Of a DNA stretch of 20,000 nt, positions 1 to 19,183 are shown in pieces. Under the pieces are notes generated by a model. That model was given only the letters and a program-made list of their open reading frames with translations. It did not search any database and was not told the origin of the DNA. Both the position numbers and the translations under genes were made by a program. Position 1 is the stretch's first letter. The number at the start of each line of letters is the position of its first letter. This DNA is from Catajapyx aquilonaris (lineage: Eukaryota): contig JYFJ02001992.1 in the NCBI GenBank assembly GCA_000934665.2, forward strand, positions 45,330-65,329, in the 5' to 3' direction.

Positions 1-790
1 CCTCCCTATAAGAAGCGAACTGCCTAACCAATTAAGAATCTCGTTATGAAGTTATGGTTCTGAAGAAGAAGAATAAAAAAAAAAGTTTGAAAGAATTTCG
101 AGCTGAAGGTCGTTTAAGGATAGGATTTCTTATTCTTTAAAATAAAAAATGTAGGGTAAGAAAATAGATTTTAAAGAAGTGGTTGAGAACACCTCTTGCG
201 AATGTGGTGAAATCAACAGCTAACCTCGGGTGTCTTTCAGGGGTGTTTAATTGCCTCCAAAGTAAATAGGCAATAAAATTTGCATTCACCAGACTCTGGG
301 CCATCAACTCAACAACCCGTGTCCTTCTAATCGGCTTTCTCGCATTAGCAAATCCTCCCCCGCCACCAGCCATTTGAATATTGGCACTAACTCCCCAGCC
401 ATGGACACCAGCCTCTACACGTTTTTGAAACCTCCCAGGAGGAATTTTAGTCTCGATGGAAATGTACCTAGGTATATGATAAATAAAATATGAGGCAAAA
501 ACATGCATGGGTTTTTTTTTTCTGGCGGATCACTCAGGGTATGTGACAGTTGAATGACGTGAATGGGTTATGAGCGTAACTTTAGGGAGATGAAAGACTT
601 GGCTAAACAACTGTTATGTACTCGTACTTGATCAAAACAGTGACCTTGATTGGAGGGGACAAAAACAGGTCATATCCGTTTGTATCGGATGTAATCATCT
701 TCGATGCCTTTTGCTATGTGAATAGAGTATATGGGAATACAAGAAGGGCTGTGACATCATGTGGTTTAGCTTGCACCAATACGTCATTAC

Positions 791-844
791 TTGGCCTCGT
801 CGATGTTGACACAAATAAATTTGTAACTGAAAACATCTGTTCCT
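791..844 (-). CDS. Candidate 54-nt symmetric (phase 2-2) cassette exon xGTDVFSYKFICVNIDEA(K)
   Basis: Acceptor cctttctttttaaatag| (AG at 846-845), a stop-free reading frame when entered in phase 2, and donor AA|GTAATG (790-785). Length is a multiple of 3. Confidence 0.25.
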
Positions 845-1459
845 CTATTTAAAAAGAAAGGATTTGATTCCTTATCATTTTAGTACATAGCGTACGTTCA
901 CTGGTCTTTCTACAACGTTATTTGTAGATAAATTAACTGCTCTTTTAACTGTGATCCATGCTATACATTGATGTGATATCAAGCAGCACATTTTAGGGAC
1001 AGAAAAGAAACATTTCTGGAGCGATATCTATTGCAAGAGTTTGTCAACTACGCAATACTGCGTTACTGTATATGTATCATTTCAAGCATGGTGTTGCCTA
1101 CTTTATATTCATGAAAATTACAGAATAATATTAATTAAGCACGTTCAGACGAGTTTGAATGGGATGACAGATGGTATGCAACAGTAAGTACGTTATTTAC
1201 AAAAGCAAGGCCATTCTGATTGCGGCATACTAAATTAGCAAATGTCAGCCCGAAATACCATAGGCCCGATAATATTAGCTTTCTGCATCTCCCACACAGA
1301 CAACTCCTGTCCAAGTACCATGGAATATATTCTACTTAATCAGTATGCCATTATAGTAGCGCCTCTCTGCTGCAGCCTTATATCAAAATCAGCACGTGCT
1401 ACATCACTATTACTATTCCAGGCATAACTTTGCCCTATCGGTACACCCTGTACCTGTAA

Positions 1460-1556
1460 TGTCTGGACCAAAGTGTCCTAGGTCCCAGACAGCCTCGGTT
1501 ACTAACCCTGAGCATTTTCGGAACAAGACCAAAAAAAAAATCCGGAGGTCCAGACA
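1460..1556. mobile_element. Small HINE-like relic
   Basis: 10-bp IR tgtctggacc (1460-1469) / ggtccagaca (1547-1556), an internal near-IR ggtcccagaca (1481-1491) and a ctaaccct unit. Confidence 0.4.
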
Positions 1557-2173
1557 CCGCAGACCACCTAGTGTCACGACAACAATTCGCCTCGTGGCCT
1601 CATAGCCAAAAAGTCTACTATAATCACATAATCCGTGCCGTCACATTTTTTTTTGTACCGGAACAGTCCGGTTATTGTGCAGTATCATTTGTCACACCTC
1701 AGCGCGATTTTCGGCCCCATTTTTCACTCCAGAATGTGACAAGGAAAAGCTCCGCACAATCGCTTGTCAAAAACGTCGCCCAAAAAAATATAAAAATGTT
1801 CTTAAAAAAAAAAAGAAGTCAGGAACCAGAACTCATCTGGTCTATTTCGGTGTCCTTCCTACTCGCGGTGATCCAAAAATAAAACTTTTTTCGCGCCTTC
1901 TAATCGCGTCCCGGTTTCTACTCCTGGCGAAGACTAAGCCACCGAGAAAAAAAATACAAGACTTCTATACAAAGGTCAATATGTGGATAAAAACATTTAT
2001 GATATTAATACATATATTTTGACCCCAAAAATGGTGCGAGATATCGATCCTAAATTATAGATTTCCAATTATTGAAAATTCTAGGCGCATAGAACCACAT
2101 TTTGAGGATTGGCCTTCTGTCGGATGCAGAAAATAGATTCCTTAGAGCCCCAGAATATCCGTTTTGAGACTAA

Positions 2174-2298
2174 GGGCCGGTTTCACCGAGCTTGGTATAT
2201 GATAAAACCAGGTTTCTTTAGGAAAGTCCATACAAATAGATAGGGATTTTGAGAAATACCCTGGTTTTATCATATACTGAGCTCGGTGAAACCGGCTC
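2174..2298. mobile_element. Tourist-like MITE (PIF/Harbinger superfamily), 125 bp
   Basis: 39-bp TIRs matching 36/39 (gggccggtttcaccgagc...aaaaccagg / cctggtttt...gctcggtgaaaccggctc), flanked by TAA at 2171-2173 and 2299-2301. GGGCC termini with a TAA TSD are typical of PIF/Harbinger. Confidence 0.88.
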
Positions 2299-2793
2299 TA
2301 ATTGACGCTATGGGAAATGCGCGTCAAACGTTATGCTTATAAGGTACCATCCCCTAGAGTATTGACTTCTGGGAGTCAAGTGGCAGCGACAAATCTTCCT
2401 TCCCCCATTTATCCCTCCAAAACTAATCTTAATCACGATCATCCGGAACACAGGAGATAAGTGGAGAATTTCTCCTAACTCCATTTTTATAGATTAAGAT
2501 CCAGCCGCCTGCTCCTCTGAAAATTTTCTGAAAAGGCATCAAAAGCCAAGTTCGTTCTAGAGATTCAAAAGCTGCTAAATGGAACAGGATATATGCCTCA
2601 ACGAATCGAAAAGTTGGGGGGGGGGGGGGGNGCTCAAAGGATCATTATGACCTATTCTTTAGGGGTTCTGAGATCGTTACCGGTACACAATTAATCTTAG
2701 CACCAACGTTAGATCATTTGACCTCTAAGGAACCACACTTATGGACCAGGTGTACGGTGTATATGGATAGAGTCAGATGACCTCCAGCTTTAC

Positions 2794-2879
2794 TTTTCGA
2801 TCATGTCACTTCTCTTCCGTGTCAGGTAGAAAGCACGCGACGGAAGCAATTTCCCGCCCAGCTTTTCAGCGTCAGCCAT
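2794..2879 (-). CDS. Weak candidate alternative first exon MADAEKLGGKLLPSRAFYLTRKRSDMIE(K); the frame is open back to an ATG at 2963
   Basis: aaaATGG context; 28 codons + AA|GTAAAG (weak donor), phase 2. CCAAT and GC-box-like motifs lie immediately upstream (~2975-3030). Confidence 0.2.
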
Positions 2880-3946
2880 TTTGGACAGCAGGCTTGGGGA
2901 TGACCACTCGCACATGACGCCCCGTAGTGGAAACTTCTTGCAATTAGTGAGATCGCCGTTCATTTCGACCCCCTAGACCAATCCTCCGCCCCAACCATCC
3001 TTTCTCGCCCGTCGCGTGAGCACCAATCATCACTTTGGGTCATTTCCTACGGGGATACTTGTCAGCTGAGAAGATTTAGCAGTATCGCTATAGGAATGAA
3101 TTGTGCCAGAGGGGGAAAAAAACCTTATAGTATTGTGTTTATAGCCATTTAGTATGACCAGGCTGTAATATACTGTGTGAATGAGGAAGCTGCACGTTAA
3201 GTGCAAATTGAATGCTCAATTGGGGCTCAATTTTGGATCAGTTGGTTAATGCATGTGCATAAACGTTATTACTTCCAAGATATTCGCAAAAAGTACTGGT
3301 ATTGAAATTGCTAACGTCATAATAACGCAACCAAACCATTGTAATTTACGGTGGCGACTTGGTACCGTATCATCGCGTAATCCATATTTATTTACTGCCA
3401 GAGAGGAAGTCGGTAATACATATGGGGTAGGCTATTCTTAAAAGTTGTCACCTTGTCGTTATTAACAGTTTTAACGTGAACCGTAACAAAAATCAGAAAG
3501 TATTACGGAGCACGACTGATTTTTTGATTCTCAATTAATATTCATCACTTCAATGCTTTGGACCCAAGAGGTTGATAATTGACATTGGTGTAATAGCGTA
3601 TATTACAAGGCGTGTGCATTGTAAACATTAGCCGAGCCTTAGTGCTCTTTCAGGCCCTCATTCCACATTTTATCAGCACATCTTTATTTCTCCGGCCGTA
3701 AACAAACTGGAGGAGAAACAAATATGACAGCACTTAATAATGACAACGCGTTGTTACTGTTGTAAAAGAACTTGCACAGCTATTTCCTTCCCGATCTATT
3801 AAATTTATCTCACCTATCCGCTGTCGCTAGGCCACACAATAAAATTGAAGAAAAAAAAGACAAAAATTCCAGAGATATGTAACCAACATGTTTCACATTC
3901 CACATTGCATCGCACGCAATGACATTCCCGGTCACTATGCGCTTAC

Positions 3947-4038
3947 ATATTATCATATCCTCCGATCTGCCTGGAGACGGACTTGAACGACCGCATCCCA
4001 TCGTCTCCCATGCCGTATATACTGGCCACAGCCGCCAT
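3947..4038 (-). CDS. Sh: Shaker (Kv1) alternative first coding exon, ShB-like inactivation ball MAAVASIYGMGDDGMRSFKSVSRQIGGYDN(M)
   Basis: Strong start context caagATGG, with an in-frame TGA upstream at 4140-4138 and no intervening ATG. 30 codons + AT, then donor GTAAGC (3946-3941), phase 2. The first 13 aa are 9/13 identical to the ShB ball MAAVAGLYGLGED; the differences are G/S, L/I, L/M, E/D. The exon ends GGYDN versus ShB DGYG. Same strand and phase as the ShC-type exon. Confidence 0.88.
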
Positions 4039-4272
4039 CTTGACACCGTCTTGACTTGTATCCTCAAGTTCCAAGGTCACGTCATCCTCCTTGTGTCCAC
4101 TCCGAACCGGACCTTCCGCATTGGGGGGGACCCCATTTCACGGAGCGTCCATCCCCACCATAACCACAACACAACTGTTTCGTGTGGGGCGCATGCACTG
4201 CCCTGCCTACATGTCAGCCATGCCACGTCGCTTCTGGGAAAAATTAACGGGGGAGTAGGGGGCTGTGGGTCA

Positions 4273-4320
4273 CTAGGGGTCACAAGCAACCTGGACACTA
4301 CCCTGGAGGCAATCCTCCAT
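4273..4320 (-). promoter_or_regulatory. Candidate uORF (MEDCLQGSVQVACDP*) upstream of the ShB-like start
   Basis: Perfect Kozak gccgccATGG at 4326-4317 and stop TAG at 4275-4273, ~280 nt upstream of the ShB-like ATG. Confidence 0.35.
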
Positions 4321-4349
4321 GGCGGCCCGACACATGACCAGAGTAGGCC

Positions 4350-4430
4350 TAGCACGCGTCAAATGTGACGCCATGACACCTCTCCCCGCCCCCTCCTCCC
4401 CACCCTTCCCTCTCTGACTGCTGGATCGCG
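4350..4430 (-). promoter_or_regulatory. GC-rich putative promoter/leader for the ShB-like exon
   Basis: GC box (ccccgcccc, ~4384-4392), a pyrimidine/purine tract and a TGACG half-site directly upstream of the exon. Confidence 0.3.
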
Positions 4431-5900
4431 GTGGTTTGAGACCGGAAGGCCAGGTAGTTCTGTGGGCCAGGTAGTCAGAGCGACAGTTCGCACGGGTATA
4501 GTCCCCTTCATTGATCCGGCGGGGAATAAATGTTTCATGCATGCCGCGGAAATAATTGATGAGGGGGGGCCTTATACAATCTTCTTTCCGTGGGCCCTCC
4601 GCATTTGGTAGGTTTACGAGCCTTCACTCCTCACTCTCCTACACACACTCAAATTGTTTTCTTTCTTATTTTTCACTCTGGTTCTACCGACCTATTCGTT
4701 AAGACCTTATACCGGATTGTTAGCGACAATTGGACTCAAATGGCGTGCTGGTGCAATATGCATAAGAACCTGTCCAAAGCAAGTGTAACTCAATAGCAGC
4801 TGGTCCGTCCCATGAGGCGGGTACTACAGAATTGATTTCAGGACATAAAGGAGTAGGACCAATAAACATAGCTAATGGGGAGTTCCGTCCCCCCTTTGTC
4901 CGATAGATACCCGATGTGATTTTGTAGCGAACCGGAACATATACATAGGCCACAAAAACCTGGTTTGATAATCACTTCACCGGTCTCTGTGATTGGATAA
5001 GGCGTAGTTAATAATGAAGACAAAACGAGTCCTTTTTTCCTTCCTGTAGTTTCCTACCACTGCTGAATATTTGACCGCCGTACCGCTGTCCGTAAATATT
5101 CTTCCGGCATTGAGCTCCACCGCTTCTTCGTGAGTAATTCATTGACCTCACTTCATCCGCACAAAAGTCCATCCCGGTTCCAAACTTGGGGCGGTCCATT
5201 CAAAATTTAATCCGGTTTTCACAAAACAACCCCGGAGCAGTCAAGTCCCGCCCAAAATATGCCCATGTTTCTGGTAGAACTTGGCCTGAAGGGGTCACTG
5301 CAAATTGTGTTTTCCATCTCAGGGCTTGGATTTCTCTGAAAGTGCTGCCACTGGTGGTAGACTTCCCAACCCAGAATTTGCTAACTATTTTTAAATTACA
5401 TCTAAAAATCTAACTGTAGAAGTGTCTTATTATATAGGGTGAAGGAAAACTCGCAGACAATCGCCAGGTAGACTGATACTACTCGTAAAACTAATATATA
5501 GGTATGTACAATTAGTTTTGGGCTACTCCGTTGAATAGTTAATGCGTACGGCGCCGTCAAAGTTTCGTGACGTCACGTCCGTTCCGCCAGCTTCAAAGAA
5601 GCAAAAGTCAGTTCGAGTGCCTCCGGTCCTTTGCCTTGGTCCCCTAACACATCGTTCATGTGCAATAGGTGATCAAATCCCGTCAGAGTCAGAATCCGGG
5701 TACGACACCCGTGCACTTTTGTCGTTTTTGCCTCATATTTTATCAACCGGGCCACTACACTTTAAAGGTGCCGTACGCATTAACTACGCAACAGAGCCAA
5801 AAACGAATTGCACATCTCTATATTAGTTTTGCGAGTTTACCTGCCGATTGTACGCGAGTTTCCCTTCACCCTGTATACAGGACATCAGGCATCTCTGAGC

Positions 5901-6172
5901 GGCTAAGCTTTCGTATCGGGGGACCATGCACTTTTACCTATTCTCCTATAGGCGTGTACCTGCTGAAGGATACTGTGTACCTGCTGAACGATACTGTGAA
6001 CCAGCTGAAGGATACTGTGAACCTACTGAAGGATACTGTGAACCTGCTGAAGGATACTGTGAACCTGCTGATGAAGGATAAGCGTGTATCCGCCCGGAAG
6101 GAAGGTTAGGTCATGGGGTAGGTTGGTGCAACGTGCCCCTACTGCCACATTCGGTCTCCCATTACGAAAGTC
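5901..6172. mobile_element. Non-autonomous element with subterminal IRs and an internal minisatellite (HINE/Helentron-like), copy A
   Basis: Homologous at both ends to 12019-12528. SubTIRs ctttcgtatcgggggacc (5908-5925) and ggtctcccattacgaaag (6153-6170); internal 21-bp tandem array. Family assignment is by architecture only. Confidence 0.75.
5954..6079 (+). repeat. 21-bp minisatellite, ~6 copies of gtgWacctgctgaaggatact
   Basis: Units start at 5954, 5975, 5996, 6017, 6038 and 6059. Explains the LKDTVNL repeats in ORF 5669-6109. Confidence 0.95.
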
Positions 6173-7429
6173 CTTCCTCTCAGGGTTAATTCTGACTGTC
6201 AACCTGCAGATTAGAAAGCAGGCATGAAAGGAATCAATGGCAGTCATTCCTTCCAATCTGATAAGGCTGTCACCTCCCGAATGACTGATGTGACCCGGCA
6301 TGAAAAGAAGGCCGAAACTTCCTCCCTAATGAGTCGATGATTGAGACAGTCTCCGAATAGCTCCTCCCCCCAAAAACACTAGCAATTGACGTCATAAAAT
6401 CCTAGAAAATGTCGCATTGTCTGTCCATTATTTTTGTTGACCGAGTGCCCACATTCCTCTTCAGATAGAATATGCGTGTGTACACTGCAGAGTATGATGC
6501 GCCCCAGAGCCTTTGCGTGTGGCCTGAGACTCAGGGTCAAGCTTCCATTGAGTGTCCGAAGTGGGCGTTCGGGTGGGGGCCATTTTGGAAAGGGGGGGAA
6601 AGGGGGTTTCGGTTAGAGGGGAGTATGGATGAGCGAAACTGACCGCACTCTCCCATTTCGCTCTATTTCATAATCGATTCCGCAGGAAAGGCCTGATCTA
6701 GTTTTGCTACTCGCTCGATACGTAAGCGTGTGTGACACCTGAGCGATATGGTTTCGAGAAAAATGTATAGATCCCCCCCAAAAAAATTGGGGGAAAAAAT
6801 AGAAATTGTGGACATGCCATAGTCAAACAATAAGGTATTGAGGGACACATTTTTGTCATGCATGGTTGTGTAATATGTAGTTGAAAAGATGTAATAATGC
6901 GTGTCATGAGTGGGCTTTAAAATCGTATCTTTTATCAAATTTTTAGGGGGCGTGATGGTGTGCAGTCTGATTACTTTGTGTGCGATTACGCAAGTGCACG
7001 GAATGTTGCATCGTAACAGTGTAAGGGGGGGTTATTTATAATATATCTCTAATTGCCACCACTGGTTGAAGTGAGACACACAAATGTTATGCACCCGGAG
7101 TTTATGTGACATGTCATGCCACAATGCACACTCACACTATGTCGTGGGTATACTAAGTCCAATTTTGGCGGTTGAGTTATTTACACCACTTAGTAATTTT
7201 CTGCAATGTCGCCTGGTGATATCCATTTTGTTATGAAGATAATGAGCCAGAAATTCAGGATTTTATGTCCTCACTAGCAAACAAGTCTTTGCTGTGAATT
7301 AACTCGAAACTGGGTTTTGTGTACTTGGTGGATTTCTTCTATTATGCGCATTTTTAAAGCTGATATTCTGAAACTGGGTAGCATCTGAGCCAATCAGCAT
7401 GCATAAATTCCCTAAATCCCGTGGCTCAC

Positions 7430-7500
7430 CGGATATTTGCCAAAATGCAGCTAACACTACTTTGTTTATTAAAAGCTGCAGTTCCCCAGGGTGTTAACAT
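7430..7500 (-). CDS. Candidate additional alternative first exon MLTPWGTAAFNKQSSVSCILANI(R)
   Basis: First ATG after an in-frame TGA; 23 codons + CG|GTGAGC (7429-7424), phase 2. Start context moderate (gctATGT). No homolog recognised. Confidence 0.33.
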
Positions 7501-10500
7501 AGCAGCTTCCCATCAAGTGCCATAAAAATAGCAATGATTACGGACAAGTGTCTGCTCCCCACTTCAATTTGCAGGCAAGCAAATTAAAAGCCGTTTTGAC
7601 GACCCCCCCCCCCCTTTCAATTCCGCCTCATAATTAAATGAACCCTACAATTATTTGCAATATCTGCATGCCTCCAAAAAATAAAAGGGCAACACTGCGC
7701 AATTTGCATGACAACACTAGCAGACTGAATGCAGTCGTGCGTAAAAAGGGGGGGGGGGGCAGCACTTGCAACAACAATACCCCCCCCCCCCCAACGGACG
7801 CTAATAAAAGCGATATTGCAAAATCCTTCAAATAGAAAGTGTTGGTACAGGCCTCCCAGGACGAACAAAACCGAAGGCTTTTACAAGTCCGGAAATGGCC
7901 TAGGAGACGTACCGATTTGGCAGCCGCAACCGGCGCCATCAGCAACACAAGGAACAAATGGATGGCCTCATTTTTTTTTTTTTTTTTTGAATTTTCTACC
8001 CGTTTATTCGTTTCCCCCTAAGCCATAGAACTTCTAGAATTTTATTTTTCTGTTTTACCCCCATCGAATTCGATTTCCGAGTTAGGAATTTTTCCCTTCA
8101 ACAATGCTGGGTGATTCTAAGATCACAAAAGGCTAACAACTCATTTCAAGCTGGAGTATAGAATCGGTTTTATTTGGCTCCTGAGGCCACTTTTGATACT
8201 TATATCCCGACACGAACAGAAGTTTGCAAAAAAAAAAATGATGATATTTACTGCTTCAAAGACGCTGCATAAACCTACGTGAGCTTCTAATAAACGGAGA
8301 AGGACATTAAAAGGATTGTTCTTAAACGACCTCGTTTAATCGACGCAATTTATTCCGACAAAAATTATAGCAGAGTGGTAAAACGAGTCGTTTACAAGTT
8401 CAGGCCTTTAGAAAATGAGGGTTTGGATCCAAATTGTTAGCATTAGAGGTAGGTATCTCTATCAGAAATTATTGGTTATCTCGTTCGTTTTCACGTTGAA
8501 TCAGATCGATTCGTTTGAACTGGGTATTTCAGTTTCAAATTCTGCTTTTCCACTCCTTTAGCCTTAGGGGGAAGTCTCTTGATGTTTTCATGTACGATGG
8601 ACTGGATTTATGAAAGTCTGGGGAAATTTTCATGTCGCCAGAGTACGGTTTTCTGAAACATTTTTTTTGACACATAGTGCACTTTAAAGTGAATAAATAT
8701 CAAAAATCCGGAGATGAACAATTTATCAGTTGGTATCAAGTTACACGACACTTACAAACTCACATAGGTTTTCGTTAAATAGTCCGAGATAGGTTTCTAT
8801 ATAGGATGTCCTATCTCTATGCACTTTTGAATGACGGCGACCAAAAGCAGAGGGCACTAAATACCAGTTCAAATAGAGGAAATACCGTATTTAAATTTCT
8901 AACGCCACGGAATTCGTAAACACTGACGCTACTATTTCATTCAGTCTGTTTGCTTCTGTTAATTAATTACAAGTACACAAGCATGTGTGTAATCCTACAC
9001 TGTGCAAATCCTTTGAACCTGCCCCTTCCAGCCAATGTTGACTGCACGACATAATCCTATATTCGGTTTGAAATTCGTGAGTCCGGTAGTAACAAGCGTA
9101 AATATACACTCTACAGAGGCCGATAATGGAAACTAGTTTTGCGACAAAAACCGCCCCATCAACTCTTCACATATCCTTTTTTTTTTTTTACAAAAAAAAA
9201 TCAAACATCATGCTGAACTCATGGAAGCTCAAATAATGCATCTGAAATACTGTACAAATTGATGTCGAAAATTCGAAGGGAAGTGCTTGTGCTTACATTT
9301 ACAACTGATTTGAGTGCATTTACTGTGCTTGAAAAGAGCGTTGGTGGAAGCAACAAAGGTAAATCAGGCCCTTTTCAAAAATAAAAAATGTGTTGGAATA
9401 TAGCGTGGTCTAGAGGGCACTCAAGGTCTCATACTTTTTGAGTACGTAGGTTCAAATCCCGATAGGTCATCCATATGGGACAGATTGGATTAAAAGCTCA
9501 TGTGAAAATGCACCTGCCAACAATCATCATTTTTTTTAAAACCACTCATCAACATTACGGAATGGCAGCAGCTTTAACTCATTGGCGACAGTTTGAGCTC
9601 CGATTTGGCCTCACCCTTTACATAATTTTTCATTAACCAAAGTTTAATTCACTCTCCCCCAGGTTAAAACATGCAGCGATATCTTAATGATCTCCATACA
9701 CCTGGCAACTCTGCTTGAAACACCGACCCTGTCAGCCACATTATGACATCACTTTGGGTGTGGTTAACTCTAAGAGGTTAGCCGATCTTCCACATATATG
9801 TCCCTCAAAACCTTTTTAAATTATTGAAACAATGAATGGGAAATCACTTTTTTTTGGAGGGGGGGGGGGGAATAAGAAATAACAAGACTGCATGTCAATT
9901 CACACGAGAGTGATTCGATAAGACTTTTTCTCATTAATAGCTACTGCGGGNGTCATTCCCAAAGCTCAGTGGGGGTTACAGATGTCAAATCCGCAAAACA
10001 CCCCCAACTTCTTTTGTTCTCCTGAAGCCTTTACTAGGGGGCAGGGTGGTCGAAGCGGCAAGATGGATTTCCCTGCTGGTTTCGAAGCGTCATTGACAAA
10101 TTCCTCTTGAATGCAAGCCCAATGTTCCGGAAGAGATTGAACTGACAATCTAAGACGGGGGAGGAGGGGGGGGAGTGGTTGGGAGGAGAAATAAAATGTA
10201 TTTTTGCTGGCCTCCTGAGCAAGGTCAACAGTGAAAGATCTGCGGAATTCGGGTCAAGATCGGAATACGATTCACCTTTTCTTTTCCCCCAAATGTTCAC
10301 TCGTGGGAAATGGAGCAGACCAGTATTTGGACCCTGTCGGGTATGCTCCTCGGCAAAACAAACGGGGCTTTTGCCAATACCATGGTTTTTCGCCTGCCAT
10401 ATATAGCAGATTCTGGTCCTATCAAATGCATTTTCTAGACACATGGATTCTAGGAATGAAGAACGTTTGAACGTGTTTTTTTTTGTTGAAAATAGGGTGA

Positions 10501-11343
10501 GGTCAATGCAGGTACAGCAGATAGAATAACATTTGGAAGTGTCTTTTGCTTGCCACACAATGTAAATCTCTTGTCAACTTGTTACAGATTTCTCATGAAA
10601 TATATAATAATTGTACCAATTTGAAACAATTTGCTTAAGTTACGTAATTACTTCAGTTAATTTATGTGACAAAAACAAAGACGTATTCTGAAAATTCTGC
10701 ATGCCATGAATATGCAGAACCACTTTAAAGGTACGGTCCTGCCATAAAAATGTATTACACCAATATCGTTCCGAGATGAGTCATTAACGCATTTTATCTC
10801 AAAATATTTACGGCCCTGTAAATATATCGTAATAACGATTTCATGTCATTAGCTGCCATAGCGGCCAAACACAACATGATTATTACCTCACACAAACAAA
10901 GCAAAATTTACCCCTCCCCCCCTCTAAAAATTGCATGAATATAATATATTTGCCGGGTTATGCGCACTATTGCGTCTCCCTAACAACGCACCTCATTATT
11001 TTAACTGTCCACACGAGCCTTCAATTATTATTCCCAGCCACGTTAGCTCTAATTAAACTTTGTGAGCAATAACACGCAACTCCTGCGCAACCCACTAGGT
11101 CTAATCAATATGACGAATCCAATCGTTTTCCTGTAGTCATCAAACAAACATCAAACTCCAATCCGGAAGGTACCGGTACGGAAAAATATATTTAAAAAAA
11201 ATATACGTCGATCTAGAGCATACTAGTAGGAATAAACTAGTTTTTTTTCTCTCTCTCTCTCTTTTTTCCAGTACAGCTCCCCCATGCTGTGTATTTTTCA
11301 ACCGTCTGAATAATTCAATATGGCGTTCCCCGCATATGCTTAC

Positions 11344-11390
11344 ATTGATCGTGCAAAGCTCGCGTGTACTGTAGGTGTGTGCACCGCCAT
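11344..11390 (-). CDS. Candidate additional alternative first exon MAVHTPTVHASFARS(M)
   Basis: gagATGG context, in-frame TAG upstream, 15 codons + AT|GTAAGC (11343-11338). Same phase 2 and same AT|GTAAGC junction as the ShB-like exon. No homolog recognised. Confidence 0.4.
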
Positions 11391-12109
11391 CTCCAGAAAA
11401 TGAGCGCTTGCATAAGGGCCCAATTGCAGTGTTTTTAACCCCTAACTCAACCTGTCCGGGGGTCCGACTTAACCACTCACATTGTAAAACCAGCATCATA
11501 AAATCCGATTATAAACTCAGGACTAGGCGGTAAAAAAAAAAATAGCATGGAAGATAAATAACTGAGGCAGGTTCTCATGGGGTAATTTTGTTCCGGGTTT
11601 GTAAAAATGTTATCAGTCACATGAGTGTCACGATATGTTTCATGGAGGAAAGTGCAATGTTCCGGGCCTAGCTTTTATTCGACCCCACAGTATAGGGTAG
11701 GAATTAGGATACAAGTACCGATAGAATTATGCTATTACAATTGGGTAGTAAAATCTTTGTATTTAAACCTGATTTTATGGTGAGCCGCCATTTTTGGAAT
11801 GTAGATAGAGTATTGGTGCTAATTATCCTGCCGGTACAAGTTACAGATGTTATGGCGTAGTGTGTAGTGCAGGTAACTTTCCATAGGTGGTAGATGGGTG
11901 TCTGATAATGGGCTCGTAAATTAAACATCACTTTTCCAAAGTAATAGGGAAATGGAGGCGTAAGGTAAAAAGTATGTCAAAAAAACATATTTTTTCCCTT
12001 CTGAGGCTTGCATTAATTGGCTAAGCTTTCATATCGGGATACCCAGCACTTTTACCTACTTTCCTATAGGCTTGTACGTATCTACTACTGAAAGATACGT
12101 GTGTACCTG

Positions 12110-12407
12110 TCTTCAATAAGCTGTGAGACTGGAAGTAGTTGTTTTTACTGTAACTGTGGGGACTTTCACTCATCTGTGGGGACAATTTTCCCACTTGCGG
12201 GGACGTTTAAGGTCCCCACAAGAAAATTGCGGGTTTGCAGTAGTGGGGACAAGTTCCCACTATTTCCAGTTGCAGGGTTTTAGAAAAGTCCATTTTTCTC
12301 ACCCTAGGTTACGTAGGTTAGGGTAGGTTAGGTTAGGTTAGGTTAGGTTAGTTTACATTAGCTTTGAAAAGTGGTCTTTTTCACGTCCCCACACCTAATC
12401 GGCCGCA
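12110..12407. mobile_element. Nested ~300-bp element with gtggggac/gtccccac inverted motifs and a (TTAGG)n tract
   Basis: Absent from copy A. Contains repeated gtggggac motifs (~12156, ~12176, ~12243), complementary gtccccac motifs (~12212, ~12385) and a taggt array. Boundaries are approximate. Confidence 0.6.
12305..12351 (+). repeat. (TTAGG)n pentamer tract
   Basis: taggttaggttaggttaggttaggttag at 12324-12351, with degenerate units from 12305. Confidence 0.9.
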
Positions 12408-14310
12408 GGGATAGGTGTATCTGCTGAAGGATAGGTGTGTATCCGCCGGGAAGGAAATTTAGGTCATGGGGTAGGTTGGTACAGCGTGCCCCTACCCCTG
12501 TCACATTCGGTCTCCCGATATGAAAGTCACTGACATAATACAAGCATATAAATACTGTACATATGAAGGCAATCTATAAAAAAATGCCACACTAAAATAT
12601 GGGCTGGGGGTATTTGGCCCCTATGCAATCACCATCCTAAAGAGCAGTTAATTATATTCGAATAATGAAAAATTTCACTTTGTTTTATCATTCTCATATA
12701 ATAATAAAGAGTTGGTGTTGGCAAAAATGGCGTTACTAAAACAAATGTGCGTCACCCATTGTCATGTGCGGGTTTCTATGTGATTACGTGTTCACTTTTG
12801 AGCTACCGATAGTTGAATTATGGAATTTAGGTGGGGCGAAAATGTTCCCGAGTTCAAAGGTGAAATAGGTGAAGATGAGCTCATATTAAAATTAAGTTTA
12901 CAGCATACATGGAATATAAAATAAAAACATTATGACAGTTGTGAATAAATGGCAAAATATGATTTTGCTTTTAATTTTTTTTTGACAAACATAGTAAACT
13001 ATACGCCTTTAGAGAAGCTATACCAAAATGGTCTGCCTCAACTCATCACATGTCATAATACAGGGTGTCCATAAATGCATGAAGATTTGAGTGGGTGCCT
13101 AGATCAAGCTGATAGATGGCTCCTGTCAGTTAAATAAGGGTTGCCTTTATCCATCCACCAAAGATGTGCAGAACCAGTTTGCCAGGGTGGGCAGGGGATA
13201 AAACGCAGCCTTACCTGACTGACACAAGTAATCTATCACCTTGATCCAAGCGTCTATTCAAACTTGTTGCTGGACATCCTGTATTTATCACTATCTTCCT
13301 ATAGTACACATCCACATTAGCAACCAGAGAGAATGGTCCAGGTTCCTCAAACCCTCGATCCTATCTAGTCAAGTATCTATTGTCACCCACACTTCTATTC
13401 CAAGCCATCAAAGTCCCAAAAAAGACTTCTGGGACACCGGAAAACTCTCTGGGACACAAATAGCCGACCTTCCGTTCAGTTAAAAGCAGCCTTTTCCAAT
13501 TAGCAGCTTTGCGAGTCAGCACATAAAATTGCCCCATTTGAGCTATCTTAAAACTACGATTTACTATGATTATTTTTCAGCAATGACAATTCATTTACAC
13601 ACCCCCATCTATTCGATGCAATAAAATATGAAGTACCCCTTCTGGAAGTGATGGCGTGGCAAAAACCTCCCTTGGACACGGCAATAAATGACAAATTCAA
13701 TTGGTCCAGGTGAGTGTCACGATCTAACCATCCGCCATAAATCGCTCCTAATGGTCCTAGCGACATGCAAAATCCTCCCTACCCAACTTTAATCAATCAC
13801 TCGACACATATAGGTGAAAGGCCGCCATACTTTCTAGGGTATTGTCTTTTGGGTCAGGATACTGGTCAAAGACATTGACCACATTTTTTTGAAAAAAAAA
13901 AAAAAACAGGTGATAAACGTTTGTTTTGGTATTTGGCGCAGTCCCTTTCCGCTCTAGAAGCCTGGCTAAGTATTGATTAGACAATGAGATGCTAATCCAG
14001 GATTACTGTCGGAATAAACGCAGGCCCGCTCCCCAGGAATGTAGGTCACCAATCAGCAGCTTCCGTTTTCGCTAACGGCACCGGCGTACTTTTGCTTAAT
14101 AGAATTCATGTCGGAATGTGAGACTTTTAGTGTCCCGTCGAGCGGGAAACGACCTGGCACCGTCGCATCGTTACTGGTGTTGGAGGAGGGAAATGACCTT
14201 GAAATCACGGGCCGCCATATTGGGAAAAAAAAATCTGGTCAACATTTTACGAGTTATGTTTTATTTATTATTACAGAGAAAAAATAATAGTCATAAGGAA
14301 TTTTTAAATG

Positions 14311-14476
14311 TGACTCGTATAGGAAAATATCGTATAGGAAAATAATGACAATCGTATATAGGAAAATAATATGACAATCGTATAGGAAAATATCGTATAG
14401 GGAATATGACTCTCGTATAGGAAAATATCGTACAGGAAATATGACTATCGTATAGGAAAATATCGTATAGTAAAAT
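14311..14476 (+). repeat. Minisatellite, ~9 units built on cgtataggaaaatat
   Basis: 15-bp units mostly alternate with 20-26-bp units carrying an extra gac-containing insert. Confidence 0.9.
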
Positions 14477-14726
14477 GTGTTTTTGCCTGCAAAAATAATA
14501 ATTATCTCACAACACATAATGTTCACACCAACACCCTGCCCAGGTTCCCACGATTGTACCAGAAAAAAAATCCCATGCCTTATTTTCTCATTCCGAATTT
14601 TCTCACGTACTGTAATTAGCGCAATCCCTCAAATTGTGCAGAAACTGGGTTAATTACGCAAACAATTTGTCAATCCGGGGTAGGCCGCTTACCTTACGAC
14701 CCAAAAGATTCTGAATGGTGCTTGAA

Positions 14727-16383
14727 TGACGTCACGAGCGGGTCGAGATGGTGGTTCCTTGGACCCAACCCATTTAGAAATGAATGGCCTTCTACTTGTG
14801 GCACTGCATGAACTACGAACTAATTGGATAGACGATCACGTGCCGGGATCCCAATGAGCTTTCAAAAAAAAAAAAAAAGGCCCAAGACTATTTTTAAGAT
14901 GGGTGCTGCTTGTTTGCAAACCGAAGCGTCTGAAATAGAATGGTGTTGTGAGGTAAGTACTGTATGGGGGGGGGGGGGGTTAGGTTAAAGAGGCTACACT
15001 GATGGAACATATTTTATGAGTCCAATTTGGGTGAGAATCATTAAGGTTGGAGGAGAGATAAAATTAGATGGTACTTTTTTTGTTTGCGACGTTTTTCTTT
15101 TATGTTCCTTGAGGATGCTGAATTTTTTGTAGGGAGGATCGAGTACAGCATGTGGTCACTGGATGCGGGTTTTGCGTCATGGTGAAACACGGCAGGGATC
15201 GATATAGCAGCAGAGATGTTTTTTTTTTGGGGGGGGGGGGGAGAAGTAACAGTTGCGATTGTTGTCAGTTTCAAAATTTGCTGTCCAAAGGAGAAACACT
15301 CTATCTGCGAAACTAGTAAGGGTGAATGTCGCATGCATTCTGCCCTGCACTAATACCCCCTGACTCAGGGGTCATGCATGCGACTTTCACCCTTACTAGT
15401 TTTGCAGATAGGGTCTTTCTCATTGGGACGGCAGAAATGTACTATAGAGGTGAATATACTTTTCCCAAAGCTCATTTTGCTGCTGCACCTCTTCCACTGT
15501 AAATGTGGCCATATTTCTAGCTCATGGCTCCTACAGGCAGCATAATATAGAGTTAGTGTGGGTATGGGCCAGCAGGGGATGATGATGACGACGGCAACCG
15601 TGATGTTGCCAGCAAACGCGCTAAAATCCGGGCTCGATACATATTAAATAATCATGTGGCCTCTCCATCCCGTCTGTGCCGCTGTTTTGTTTGCCTCCGT
15701 ATAAATTCATACATGCTATTGAGCTCCGGGCTTTTTGGTTTTAGGCTAGGTTTTGACAGGTGGGAATATTAATCTCGCTGACGTCATTCTTGCAAAAAAA
15801 AATTGGCCTATGAGTACCTTGGGGTATAAATAGCGCAACTTTCTATTACCTTGTCACAAAAAATAGAACCGTGGTTATATATATAATGCAGGATATTAAT
15901 GTGATATACATTGTTCCGCACTGTACCTAGCAATTAATAATTTAGTGTCCTGCACACTATTCCTTTGATCTCGCACTGCTAAACAATAACCAGCAGTTGG
16001 ACCCAATGTAGGGTCATTTTTTATTGATATATAATTAATAATGAAACACGGGCCATTTGCGTCGAACACCACACGTTGATTATGACCGCTCTGCAATCAC
16101 GGGAATACAATCCACATTAGCAACTTTGAATAGGGTGATTTAAAATATTTCATCTTCCATTGCTACATTTATAGTTTAATATTCCAACACGCTATATGAC
16201 CCTAGTCCTTGTTCCACTGCATTGCATATCCGTAACCAAATAGTGCGTTGCAGGCTTGGAAACCTTGGACTTAATTTGGACCTCCCAGGTCGGACTTGAT
16301 CTCGGTTCTAGTATAGCAGCCCGAACCTGTCCACTGCTATTCTGGTTTATAGGTAACTTCTGCAATATTCGGGAATGACGTCA
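14727..16383. promoter_or_regulatory. Cluster of CRE palindromes TGACGTCA (14727, 15779, 16376; further copies at 5568 and 6387)
   Basis: Exact 8-mer matches read from the sequence; function is inferred. Confidence 0.35.
15279..15433. mobile_element. Fold-back element / degenerate MITE with 60-bp inverted arms
   Basis: Arms 15279-15338 and 15374-15433 are reverse complements with ~7 mismatches. The spacer contains the palindrome cccctgactcagggg. No clear TSD. Confidence 0.7.
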
Positions 16384-17299
16384 AAAGTAAGGCGGGAGGT
16401 CCTCTGTAATTGCGCCCAGGAGTGAATATTGACTGAGTTTGAAAAGTTCATGCACGAACCTCGTTAGCGGGTCTATAAAGAGGTTGTTCTGACATCACTG
16501 GTTGCACTCTTGGAAGACGAAAATTTGGGTCATGTAATACACCACAACTACCAGGTGAAGCTCCGGCGATAATTACAAAGAGAGGTCGTGGTGAGGACCA
16601 TGGGGTTTGGAGGTATAATATACCGGTACGTTAAATATTCCGGGGGGCCAAAAGCCATAAGCTTCATTAGGCGTGCACCTGTACAAAAGACGCCATGTTT
16701 CATCGGAGGATGGAAACAATGCCACAAAGCCAAAGAGCTGCGGTTATTGTGTGCATCCCCCCAGCCCTTGTCCCTGCCAGTCCCTCCTCTCCCTGATCTC
16801 CCTCCCCCCCAAAAACAACGCAGCCCGCAGGACACTTCTACCCTGTTTTATCCTCCCGGTTTCCAACTGCCTGCTGTTAGGCTCTGAATAGACCTCTTTT
16901 CGTATCATGACCAATGTATTATTTTGAAAGGGATTCTGTAAGGGCATTTTGCTGACCCCTAAATGAAGAGTACGGTTCCNCCCCCCGTTAAACAAAAGGA
17001 AAAGGGCTGTCAATGTATCGGAGGGAAAAGTGAGGCCATGTGGTTAGTAGGGAAAGGCTATAACTATCGGAAAATGCGATTAGGTACTTCGAACGATGAG
17101 CAGGAAATGGCCTTAATAATGTGAAGCAAAAAAGAACATTCTGCGAGAATTCAAACAGAGATTGGTTCGATATCCACTGGAGCAAAGTGCTTACCAGTGG
17201 TAAAATTCCTCCACTGGCCACTATCTACACCATATGAACAGAAAAAGCACATTTTGCAAGGGCCTAGCAACTCCCTAGAACCGGTGTACACACTGGCCA

Positions 17300-17348
17300 A
17301 GGAACCAGGTGGAACCGGCTTGGAATCGGGTGGAACCGGGTGGAACCT
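17300..17348 (+). repeat. Short ~10-bp tandem repeat (ggtggaaccg-like, ~5 units)
   Basis: ggaaccaggtggaaccggcttggaatcgggtggaaccgggtggaacc, flanked by ggtgtacac on both sides. Confidence 0.7.
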
Positions 17349-17517
17349 CCCGGTTCCAGGATCTGGTGTACACTTTTTTTGGGGAGTTGCTAACCCCTTC
17401 GCATTTTGGCACATATCTTGGACATTTCTTATGAATGTCACTATCGGCAGAAGGGAAGCTGAGCTAACCGTATTGCTGCTTAGAGAGTCTTACTATTCTA
17501 GTGCACACGGGACTTAC

Positions 17518-17543
17518 CCCCCAGCCACCAAAATCATCTGCAT
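17518..17543 (-). CDS. Sh: Shaker (Kv1) alternative first coding exon, ShC-type N-terminus MQMILVAG(G)
   Basis: Minus strand reads acgATG CAG ATG ATT TTG GTG GCT GGG GG|GTAAGT. The peptide MQMILVAG+G is identical to the Drosophila ShC N-terminus as I recall it (MQMILVAGG-SLPKLSS). A perfect GTAAGT donor (17517-17512) falls exactly where the ShC-specific sequence ends; phase 2. Confidence 0.92.
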
Positions 17544-19086
17544 CGTATCCGGCGGTTGAGAGTCGAACCCTAGTCCATCATGATGCTGGTTGTGCGTACA
17601 TTCCTGGCATTGGTAGCCATTCCTATTAGCCGTATATTCCCTAGTATCCAGGGTGGCGGCCCGCACAGCACCACAATTCCTCGCGATGGCCAATCACCGC
17701 CCTCGCCATCACACTCACCATCACTCCGCACAATCCATCCCCACATAGCTCATCTACTGCTACACGTACCAACCATTCGACAGATTCAATCGCGATTAGT
17801 GTCGGTTGGATCATCAGCTGACGGATTTTTACCCACAGCTTTTGTTGTTCCCTGAAGCCGGGATGGGAAGTGGTACATTAACTCGCACATAATTCTCAAT
17901 TTATAAAAGTTGCCAAACTTGTAGTCTAGAAACAGTTAAAAATAACCCATATCTATTAAAGACACAATTTTTAAATAAATTAAACTCAATAAATTAGTCA
18001 ATTCCAACTTATGGACTTATGGCATACCCCTGCGGTATAAAACCTGTGGCATTGGGAGGCAAAACATATCCACAAGCTCGTACGCTGAAAGCTGACTTGC
18101 ACAAATAAATGCCGGAAATATATGTGCAAAACGCCAATATTTGCTCGACCTGATATCGCCATCAGAGATAACATTGTAGCTCACAATCAATAACATACTC
18201 CCGCACCCATTTTTCATCTACTTAAGTGGGGGTGAAAAGTCGCTACACGCTAATCATGTAGAGAACATTTGACAATAAGTGAACTTAGAGAAAAAAAAAA
18301 CATTAATGTCGACCCGAATAATAGCAGTAGGAAGCGGGCTCTATTCCTATAAAAAACAGTAGAAAAGAATGGCTTCGACAGGCACAAGCTCAGGCAATCG
18401 GCGCCAGAAATTGATGGGATGTTATCCACAGCTGCTGAAGCAAAGCATGGGGGTGGGTCTCACCCTTCCCATAAATCCTATCGACCACCAATTTACACCA
18501 GCCATCGACTCAGCAACACCCCCAGTCGGAAAAAGGAGAGAGAGAGAGTTGGGCTACAATTCTAACGAGTTACGAGGAGAAGCCCCGTGATTTGGAACCA
18601 GAATCTGTGAATTAGTGTCAGGACGTATTCGCGCAAAAATGATTGAGCTGGCCAGATTTGAAACAGGTGGTTTCGCCATTTTGGTGGTGGAAAGACTTTG
18701 GCACTTTTTTTTGCGATGGCCAACTGCAGCCCCCACACAAGTTCAGAGGATGCAGCCAACTGGACTCAAATGCGACCCATCGTGATCACCTTGTTATGGT
18801 AGCGTTTCATTACGTTCCCCTGCTATGCCTCACATCTCACCGACGCGTGGCCAGGAATTTTAATGTTGGTTGCACACAGTGGCGGTTAGTTCGAAAAATC
18901 GATTTCCCATACAGTTAGGATCAAATCGGGTGGCGATTTTCCAGCAGGAAATGAAGATTCTCGAAAGGAGCACAAACTATAGGTGTGAACAGACCTTTTA
19001 TTATATGTGAAGTTGCTGGATTACACATATGCAATGTGTAAACAGTTTCAGCGCCTTCTACTGGCCGGCTCTGCAAATCACTCAGT

Positions 19087-19183
19087 AAACCGTTGGAAAA
19101 AAAAACCGTTGAAACGACCGTTGGGGAAAAAAACCGTTGAAAAAAGCCGTTGGAAAAGCGGCGAGAACACAATTCGGTCTCCC
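19087..19183 (+). repeat. Degenerate ccgttg(g)aaaa tandem array followed by a HINE-like terminal motif
   Basis: Five ccgttg cores (19090, 19106, 19118, 19134, 19147), then attcggtctccc (19172-19183), identical to 6149-6160 and 12505-12516. Confidence 0.6.

Follow-up and report, generated by a model that had tools for sequence, protein, structure and literature searches.

Alternative ShB- and ShC-type first coding exons in the 5′ region of a probable dipluran Shaker gene

Introduction

Do two very short exons, 13.5 kb apart on one strand of an arthropod genome, belong to a Shaker (Kv1) potassium channel gene, and how old is the set of protein starts of which they would be part? The question is raised by a 20,000-nucleotide stretch (the window) that forms the final 20 kb of C913, a contig of assembly G000; window base 1 is C913:45330, and a C913 coordinate is the window coordinate plus 45329. 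From sequence comparison, we conclude that the window is very probably the 5′ region of a Shaker orthologue in a japygid dipluran, a wingless hexapod of the soil, and that it carries part of an alternative first-exon cassette. The peptides are labelled ShB, ShC and ShD after the alternative N-termini of Drosophila Shaker. The ShC and ShD strings appear in PMC2229190 and the ShB start in PMC12460158.

Results

Two first coding exons and the Shaker gene downstream

Read on the minus strand, window positions 17543-17518 translate to M-Q-M-I-L-V-A-G plus GG and run directly into GTAAGT. Positions 4038-3947 hold 30 codons beginning MAAVASIYGMGDD plus AT, followed by GTAAGC. Both exons end in phase 2; Gly9 of the ShC-type start is made of the exon's GG and a G from the acceptor, and Met31 of the ShB-type start of AT and the same G. 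Such a layout alone is weak evidence because 41 ATG-to-GT[AG]AG mini-exons occur in the window, counting both strands and all phases. We therefore rely on the peptides, which were scored, alongside 100 six-base block shuffles, against N-terminal sequences of named insect Shakers. For the ShB-type exon the score was 56, against a shuffle maximum of 30 and 26 for the next-best real site, and for the ShC-type exon it was 43, against 26 and 18; none of the 100 shuffles reached either score. By this measure, the two peptides are not chance products. An acceptor-like site lies 195 nucleotides (nt) 5′ of the ShB-type ATG, and 8-11 upstream ATGs occur within 250 nt of each start. The micro upstream open reading frame (ORF) before the ShC-type ATG (Table 1) may possibly act in translational control.

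The channel core lies outside the window, 25-38 kb downstream on the same strand. A T1 domain match at C913:20555-20818 is on the same contig and strand as the window exons, and PF02214 (T1, BTB_2) and PF00520 (the six-helix ion-transport domain) fall on consecutive exons. All inner exon ends of the core are canonical AG/GT, and the K+ filter TTVGYG (pore exons A and B) and the PVP gate (S6 exon) are present. When the exons are joined in silico, the ShC-type start opens a frame of 512 residues and the ShB-type start one of 534 residues, with pore exon A or B alike, and the frame is broken when the pore exon is omitted. The intron to the common exon would span ~24.8 kb from the ShB-type donor and ~38.3 kb from the ShC-type donor. 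The initial annotation had read the two exons as a Shaker/Kv1 locus and had predicted a phase-2 acceptor beginning G/TCN and a Kv1 core downstream on the minus strand. Both exons lie where it had placed them and join in frame to a common SLPKL exon, the acceptor at C913:24507 reads cag/G TCG CTC CCG AAG, and T1, S1-S5, pore, S6 and ETDV exons follow it.

Over the S1-S5 exon, identity to insect Shakers is 87-89%, and two other Kv loci in the genome reach just 44% over the same region. The best PDB matches are Shaker (E ~1e-115), with Kv1.2 at 1e-82, and for the C-terminal exon, decapod and krill sequences come nearest (84-88%). By these matches, the gene belongs to Shaker/Kv1 and stands nearer to Shaker than to vertebrate Kv1 or any other Kv family. 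Four RNA runs (word shares 0.16-0.47) aligned to the window covered neither exon, only repeats, and are silent on splicing either way.

Table 1. Features of the gene and related loci (plain numbers are window positions; others carry their contig)
Feature	Location	Strand	Remarks
ShC-type alternative first coding exon, coding part	17518..17543	-	26 nt; phase-2 donor GG/GTAAGT
Micro upstream ORF	17570..17581	-	three codons and stop; 38 nt 5′ of ShC-type ATG
ShB-type alternative first coding exon, coding part	3947..4038	-	92 nt; phase-2 donor AT/GTAAGC
Probable 5′ untranslated part of ShB-type exon	4039..4233	-	inferred, behind acceptor-like site
Long intron, 5′ part	1..3946	-	exits window toward common exon at C913:24507
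Weak candidate further first exon (MAGGGGGF...)	225..373	-	resembles lepidopteran N-terminus over 13 residues
KWGLTPVL-type exon	C913:29922-29726	-	E 2.7e-14
ShD-type exon	C3895:16853-17004		E 6.8e-10
MFAMTEY-type exon	C2372:27271-27311		one pattern match; reversed control pattern 0
Common phase-2 acceptor exon (SLPKL)	C913:24507-24384	-	begins cag/G TCG CTC CCG AAG
T1 exon	C913:20812-20547	-	
S1-S5 exon	C913:18217-17571	-	
Third pore exon (L014)	C913:14182-14004	-	179 nt; AG/GT flanks; long turret; GFG filter
Pore exon A	C913:13950-13821	-	
Pore exon B	C913:13786-13657	-	
S6 exon	C913:10289-10099	-	
Last exon	C913:9687-9533	-	ends ETDV
Intronless Shaker paralogue (L005)	C602, about 64560-66200		long cysteine-bearing turret; keeps TTVGYG
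Intronless Shaker paralogue (L004)	C77, about 67650-69260		long cysteine-bearing turret; TTVGYG lost

The host of the gene

By its COII protein, the assembly matches Japyx solifugus at 92% identity, Occasjapyx at 85% and Parajapyx at 79%, while the other named matches among the 120 listed reach at most 77%. This points to the Japygidae, class Diplura, as the host; Diplura is a hexapod lineage near the true insects but outside them (PMC4228403). In a 25-row tree, the Shaker gene falls outside the insect clade (support 95/95), at an open fork with crustaceans and other arthropods. The initial annotation had held only that the genome was not Drosophila melanogaster, which agrees with a host outside the strict insects that is, by COII, a japygid dipluran. 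A tRNA scan of the mitochondrial loci with a bacterial model returned 0 genes. A separate mitochondrial-like locus (L019, C5905:1-3017) carries ND2 and COI with several frameshifts and is probably a nuclear copy or an assembly error.

One alternative is that the two peptides are chance look-alikes or that C913 is contamination from a true insect. The abundance of mini-exons in the window and the location of the COII marker on a different contig would suit it. Chance, however, did not reproduce the scores in any shuffle, and the core lies downstream in the correct orientation. Contamination is contradicted by an S1-S5 exon whose identity to the listed insects never exceeds 89%, by the position of the gene outside the insect clade, and by an S3-S4 linker that the gene has in common with two paralogues on other contigs of the genome. 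We regard this alternative as largely refuted and scarcely credible.

Further first exons and a probable cassette

Three more conserved first exons were found, of the ShD, MFAMTEY and KWGLTPVL types, all with phase-2 GT[AG]AG donors. There are consequently five first exons, all phase 2, and one phase-2 acceptor giving SLPK, with two of the five on unjoined contigs: comparison of C3895 and C2372 with C913 found internal repeat matches only and no end overlap. The modular architecture of two exons drawn in the initial annotation is borne out in that both are in frame, but its number was too small, since conserved first exons number five or more. No in-frame ATG is present in the KWGLTPVL-type exon, where a Kozak-like GCCGCC stretch stands before an ATT that borders the conserved part; further upstream, the annotations of four homologues (three from named insects) conflict. 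A non-AUG start, an internal exon or an indel are candidate readings. The candidate at 225..373 scored 43 versus a best of 36 in 100 shuffles; it is glycine-rich, offers only non-consensus phase-2 donors, and is unproven as a further first exon.

Decapod-type starts were not found on C913, C3895 or C2372, the remaining genome not having been searched for them. The one exception is a MARK match at C3895:3182, which is four residues long and lacks a consensus phase-2 donor. We also noticed ratchet-like acceptor-donor sites at C913:44492 (minus) and at C2372:4701 and 5336 (plus), all on the sense strand of the gene; the three antisense strands hold none, and a fourth sense match is the T1 acceptor.

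Distribution and age of the starts

Among the best 120 homologues, 14 have an ShB-type start and three have the ShC peptide directly before SLPKL. Outside insects, the tally comprises 71 listed proteins, taken from a last-exon search and then from the listed members of each cluster (at most 15 per cluster, e.g. 15 of 48); 12 of the 71 have no recognisable linker. The malacostracan proteins (n = 41) include four ShB core starts, three MFAxTEY starts and three loose ShC-like stretches, and the spider proteins (n = 16) include one ShD-like, one MFAxTEY and two MAA..IWSQ starts. The one centipede protein is ShD-like, and the 12 copepod proteins include one ShB-like and one ShD-like start; a single mite protein, left untyped, makes up the 71. 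ShB-type starts joined to SLPK are present in public annotations of Macrobrachium, Panulirus and Penaeus; therefore, the cassette is no younger than the decapod-hexapod ancestor, for which a Cambrian fossil serves as calibration (bioRxiv 10.1101/044859). By this distribution, diplurans did not invent the cassette but received it from early arthropods. The initial annotation had suggested that a distant host would date the system much earlier, which mostly fails: the host is still a hexapod, and ShB-type starts in decapods and ShD- or MFAxTEY-like starts in the centipede, spiders and a copepod had already been annotated. A linker-exon search of 50% representatives gave 102 matches, 97 of them new, with no ShC peptide and two ShB starts; most are single-exon read-through, with Arg before the linker in 77 of 86, as AG/G gives. 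Our literature search, which left most subscription papers outside, turned up no study of dipluran Shaker or of how old the cassette is. Figures S1 and S2 of PMC3634772 compare ecdysozoan N-termini and may already show part of the distribution.

The exact ShC nonapeptide occurs in none of the 71 listed non-insect proteins, and its six carriers among the retrieved proteins are all insects. Its presence outside insects may be new with this genome, with the sampling thin because the named proteins retrieved include no branchiopod, springtail, proturan or remipede Shaker. In metagenomes, the ShC motif was found at 17 loci, which their upstream sequences sort into about six groups, with GT[AG]AGT next in 17 of 17; as the search pattern fixed the peptide, the donor is the sole independent evidence in these loci. 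Resemblance to a wasp upstream sequence is confined to L026 and L028, and the 3-kb flanks of the loci hold no further Shaker exon. The ShC codons of the window differ from all eight distinct metagenome versions, with the nine residues and the consensus donor kept. A Met-Met-stop resembling the micro upstream ORF of the window stands 50 nt upstream of the motif in 11 of the 17 loci, which are near-identical and therefore count as one lineage. Separately, Macrobrachium isoforms P0244, P0299 and P0310 carry MQNLIVAG within a longer start, possibly a diverged ShC homologue.

The ball peptides compared with known channels

The ShB-type ball reads A2 A3 V4 A5 S6 I7 Y8, with the Met-Ala start, hydrophobic residue 7 and Tyr8 of this type. 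In the fly structure, Met1 is removed and acetyl-Ala2 contacts I470, V4 and A5 contact V474 and P475, L7 contacts P475 and V478, and Y8 contacts N482 and H486 (PMC12460158). The dipluran peptide keeps A2, V4, A5 and Y8 and has Ile7, and the contact residues in the S6 segment are all present. Residue 6 is Ser here and Gly in 29 of 29 retrieved MAAVAxxYG proteins. The net charge of residues 1-20 is 0, as in decapods, compared with +2 in a fly (Stomoxys). Positive charge at residues 12-20 accelerates binding (PMC2229190); therefore, a slower onset than that of fly ShB is predicted.

As in Drosophila Shaker, alternative first coding exons face a common SLPKL exon, the protein ends in ETDV, and the ShB-type plug residues and S6-segment contacts are kept. 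The in-silico product places MQMILVAGG directly before the common linker, identical to the six insect proteins retrieved. In contrast to the Drosophila channel, the dipluran ShB-type start is short (31 residues) and has Ser6, Ile7, Met10 and a neutral first 20 residues. In addition, the gene holds a third pore exon that is broken and has a long turret, and the genome holds two intronless paralogues. The decapod RefSeq Shakers (Macrobrachium P0298 and P0307, Panulirus ornatus P0314, Penaeus indicus P0322) likewise join an ShB-type start to SLPK, and decapods also have an MFAMTEY-type start and two alternative pore exons ending GDMR or GDMT. They differ in that no exact ShC peptide is found in the 41 malacostracan proteins listed and in having several start types not found on the three dipluran contigs scanned. 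The Kv1 ancestral inactivation domain (Kv1AnID) of Aplysia Kv1 and vertebrate Kv1.4 requires acidic residues 2 and 9 and often belongs to a single-exon gene (PMC3634772). It is also an N-terminal pore plug on a Kv1 channel, but the corresponding residues here are A2 and G9 (ShB-type) or Q2 and G9 (ShC-type).

These comparisons bear on whether the exons are still in use. One or both could be relics, inherited first exons that this lineage has ceased to transcribe or splice, as may be true of the third pore exon. An out-of-frame pore exon does exist in the gene, the ShB-type start has Ser at the otherwise invariant Gly position, and the upstream ATGs crowd both starts. Nevertheless, the ShC residues and consensus donor persist under codons that differ from all metagenome versions, and the ShB-type exon retains an open frame, the correct phase and a GTAAG donor, which makes decay of either exon improbable.

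A second alternative accepts that the exons are used but has them conserved for translation control, trafficking or a partner such as a beta subunit, with some starts non-inactivating. Five fly N-termini are described as sharing no similarity and as binding with low specificity, three of five blocking at 2-15 micromolar (PMC2229190). Because the specificity of pore block is low, block leaves the unchanged ShC nonapeptide unexplained, and the micro upstream ORF before the ShC-type start may be shared. On the other hand, the kept ShB-type positions (A2, V4, A5, hydrophobic 7 and Y8) are the pore contacts of the fly structure, and such roles and pore block are mutually compatible. As a replacement for pore block, we consider this account rather unlikely.

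A third pore exon, intronless paralogues and repeats

Just upstream of pore exons A and B lies a third pore exon that is out of frame in the assembly. Its peptide scores 104 to the turret and pore of the C602 paralogue versus 54 to the gene's own pore; a pseudo-exon, a poison exon and an assembly error are candidate readings. The C602 and C77 paralogues, both intronless, are the genome's only other close matches (68% and 57%). Both are closest to the C913 Shaker gene over the core (73.4% versus at most 70.8%, and 58.8% versus at most 55.9%) and carry its S3-S4 linker. In a count of private residues, they share 3 and 4 of 13 columns, a weak support, with controls reaching 2 of 5, and the tree did not place the two paralogues, which have long branches. 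They likely arose by retroposition of a transcript using the third pore exon.

The window also contains repeats. Short elements at 2173-2299, 5481-5836 and 15279-15433, with inverted arms of 26-60 nt, are covered by diverged run X2 contigs and are probably similar to miniature inverted-repeat transposable elements. A dispersed repeat has two copies, at 5901-6172 (with a 21-nt array at 5954-6071) and 12019-12528 (with a 5-nt array at 12305-12355), and small tandem arrays with periods of 10-35 nt lie at 14305-14476, 17301-17347 and 19087-19157.

Discussion

We propose that alternative first coding exons of this Shaker gene are spliced, one at a time, through their phase-2 donors to the common SLPKL exon; T1, S1-S5, either pore exon A or pore exon B, S6 and the ETDV tail would come after it. 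The choice of first exon in each transcript would probably be made by alternative promoters or 5′ untranslated exons, and the long intron is perhaps removed stepwise at the ratchet-like site C913:44492. Each start would set fast (N-type) inactivation. By analogy with the fly structure, the ShB-type start would lose Met1 and block the open pore with its non-polar residues A2-Y8. The ShC-type start would offer a non-polar ball on a very short tether.

Several points weigh against this proposal. No spliced read or transcript was seen for either donor, so we infer the splicing of both exons from conservation and frame, and fast N-type inactivation by the ShB- and ShC-type starts is a prediction from their peptides. 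Since Ser6 replaces an otherwise invariant Gly, the ShB-type ball may act differently. The linkage of the ShD- and MFAMTEY-type exons to the gene is putative because C3895 and C2372 do not overlap C913. In addition, the lineage depends on one mitochondrial gene on another contig and on a nuclear tree with an open fork.

A bolder view, which is possible but tentative, is that the Shaker N-terminus repertoire has been fixed since the Cambrian, with the ShB, ShD and MFAxTEY starts ancestral to arthropods or pancrustaceans and ShC unchanged since the dipluran-insect split. The freezing of these N-termini would exceed the needs of a low-specificity plug, and every start would therefore be matched with a conserved partner, or a translational control, of its own. 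In the case of ShC, such control might act via the shared micro upstream ORF, and the KWGLTPVL-type exon would perhaps use a non-AUG start. The third, long-turret pore exon would have arisen in this lineage and been carried into the intronless paralogues by retroposition, and only afterwards have decayed in the parental gene.

The understanding of N-type inactivation is unchanged by our analysis, and the dipluran exons add one more case to a known design, a set of interchangeable channel-plugging ends first known from fruit flies, whose annotation extends to many insects and partly to shrimps and lobsters. What the locus adds is a gene model, for an early-branching hexapod, of a channel familiar from textbooks; exons of 26-92 nt, which ORF tracks miss, are very probably genuine parts of the gene. 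Within our sample, it moves the exact ShC start beyond the true insects and, together with public annotations, suggests that alternative balls are an old arthropod repertoire. Its natural variants, Ser6 and a neutral tether, may serve for biophysical comparison with the 2025 inactivated-channel structure.

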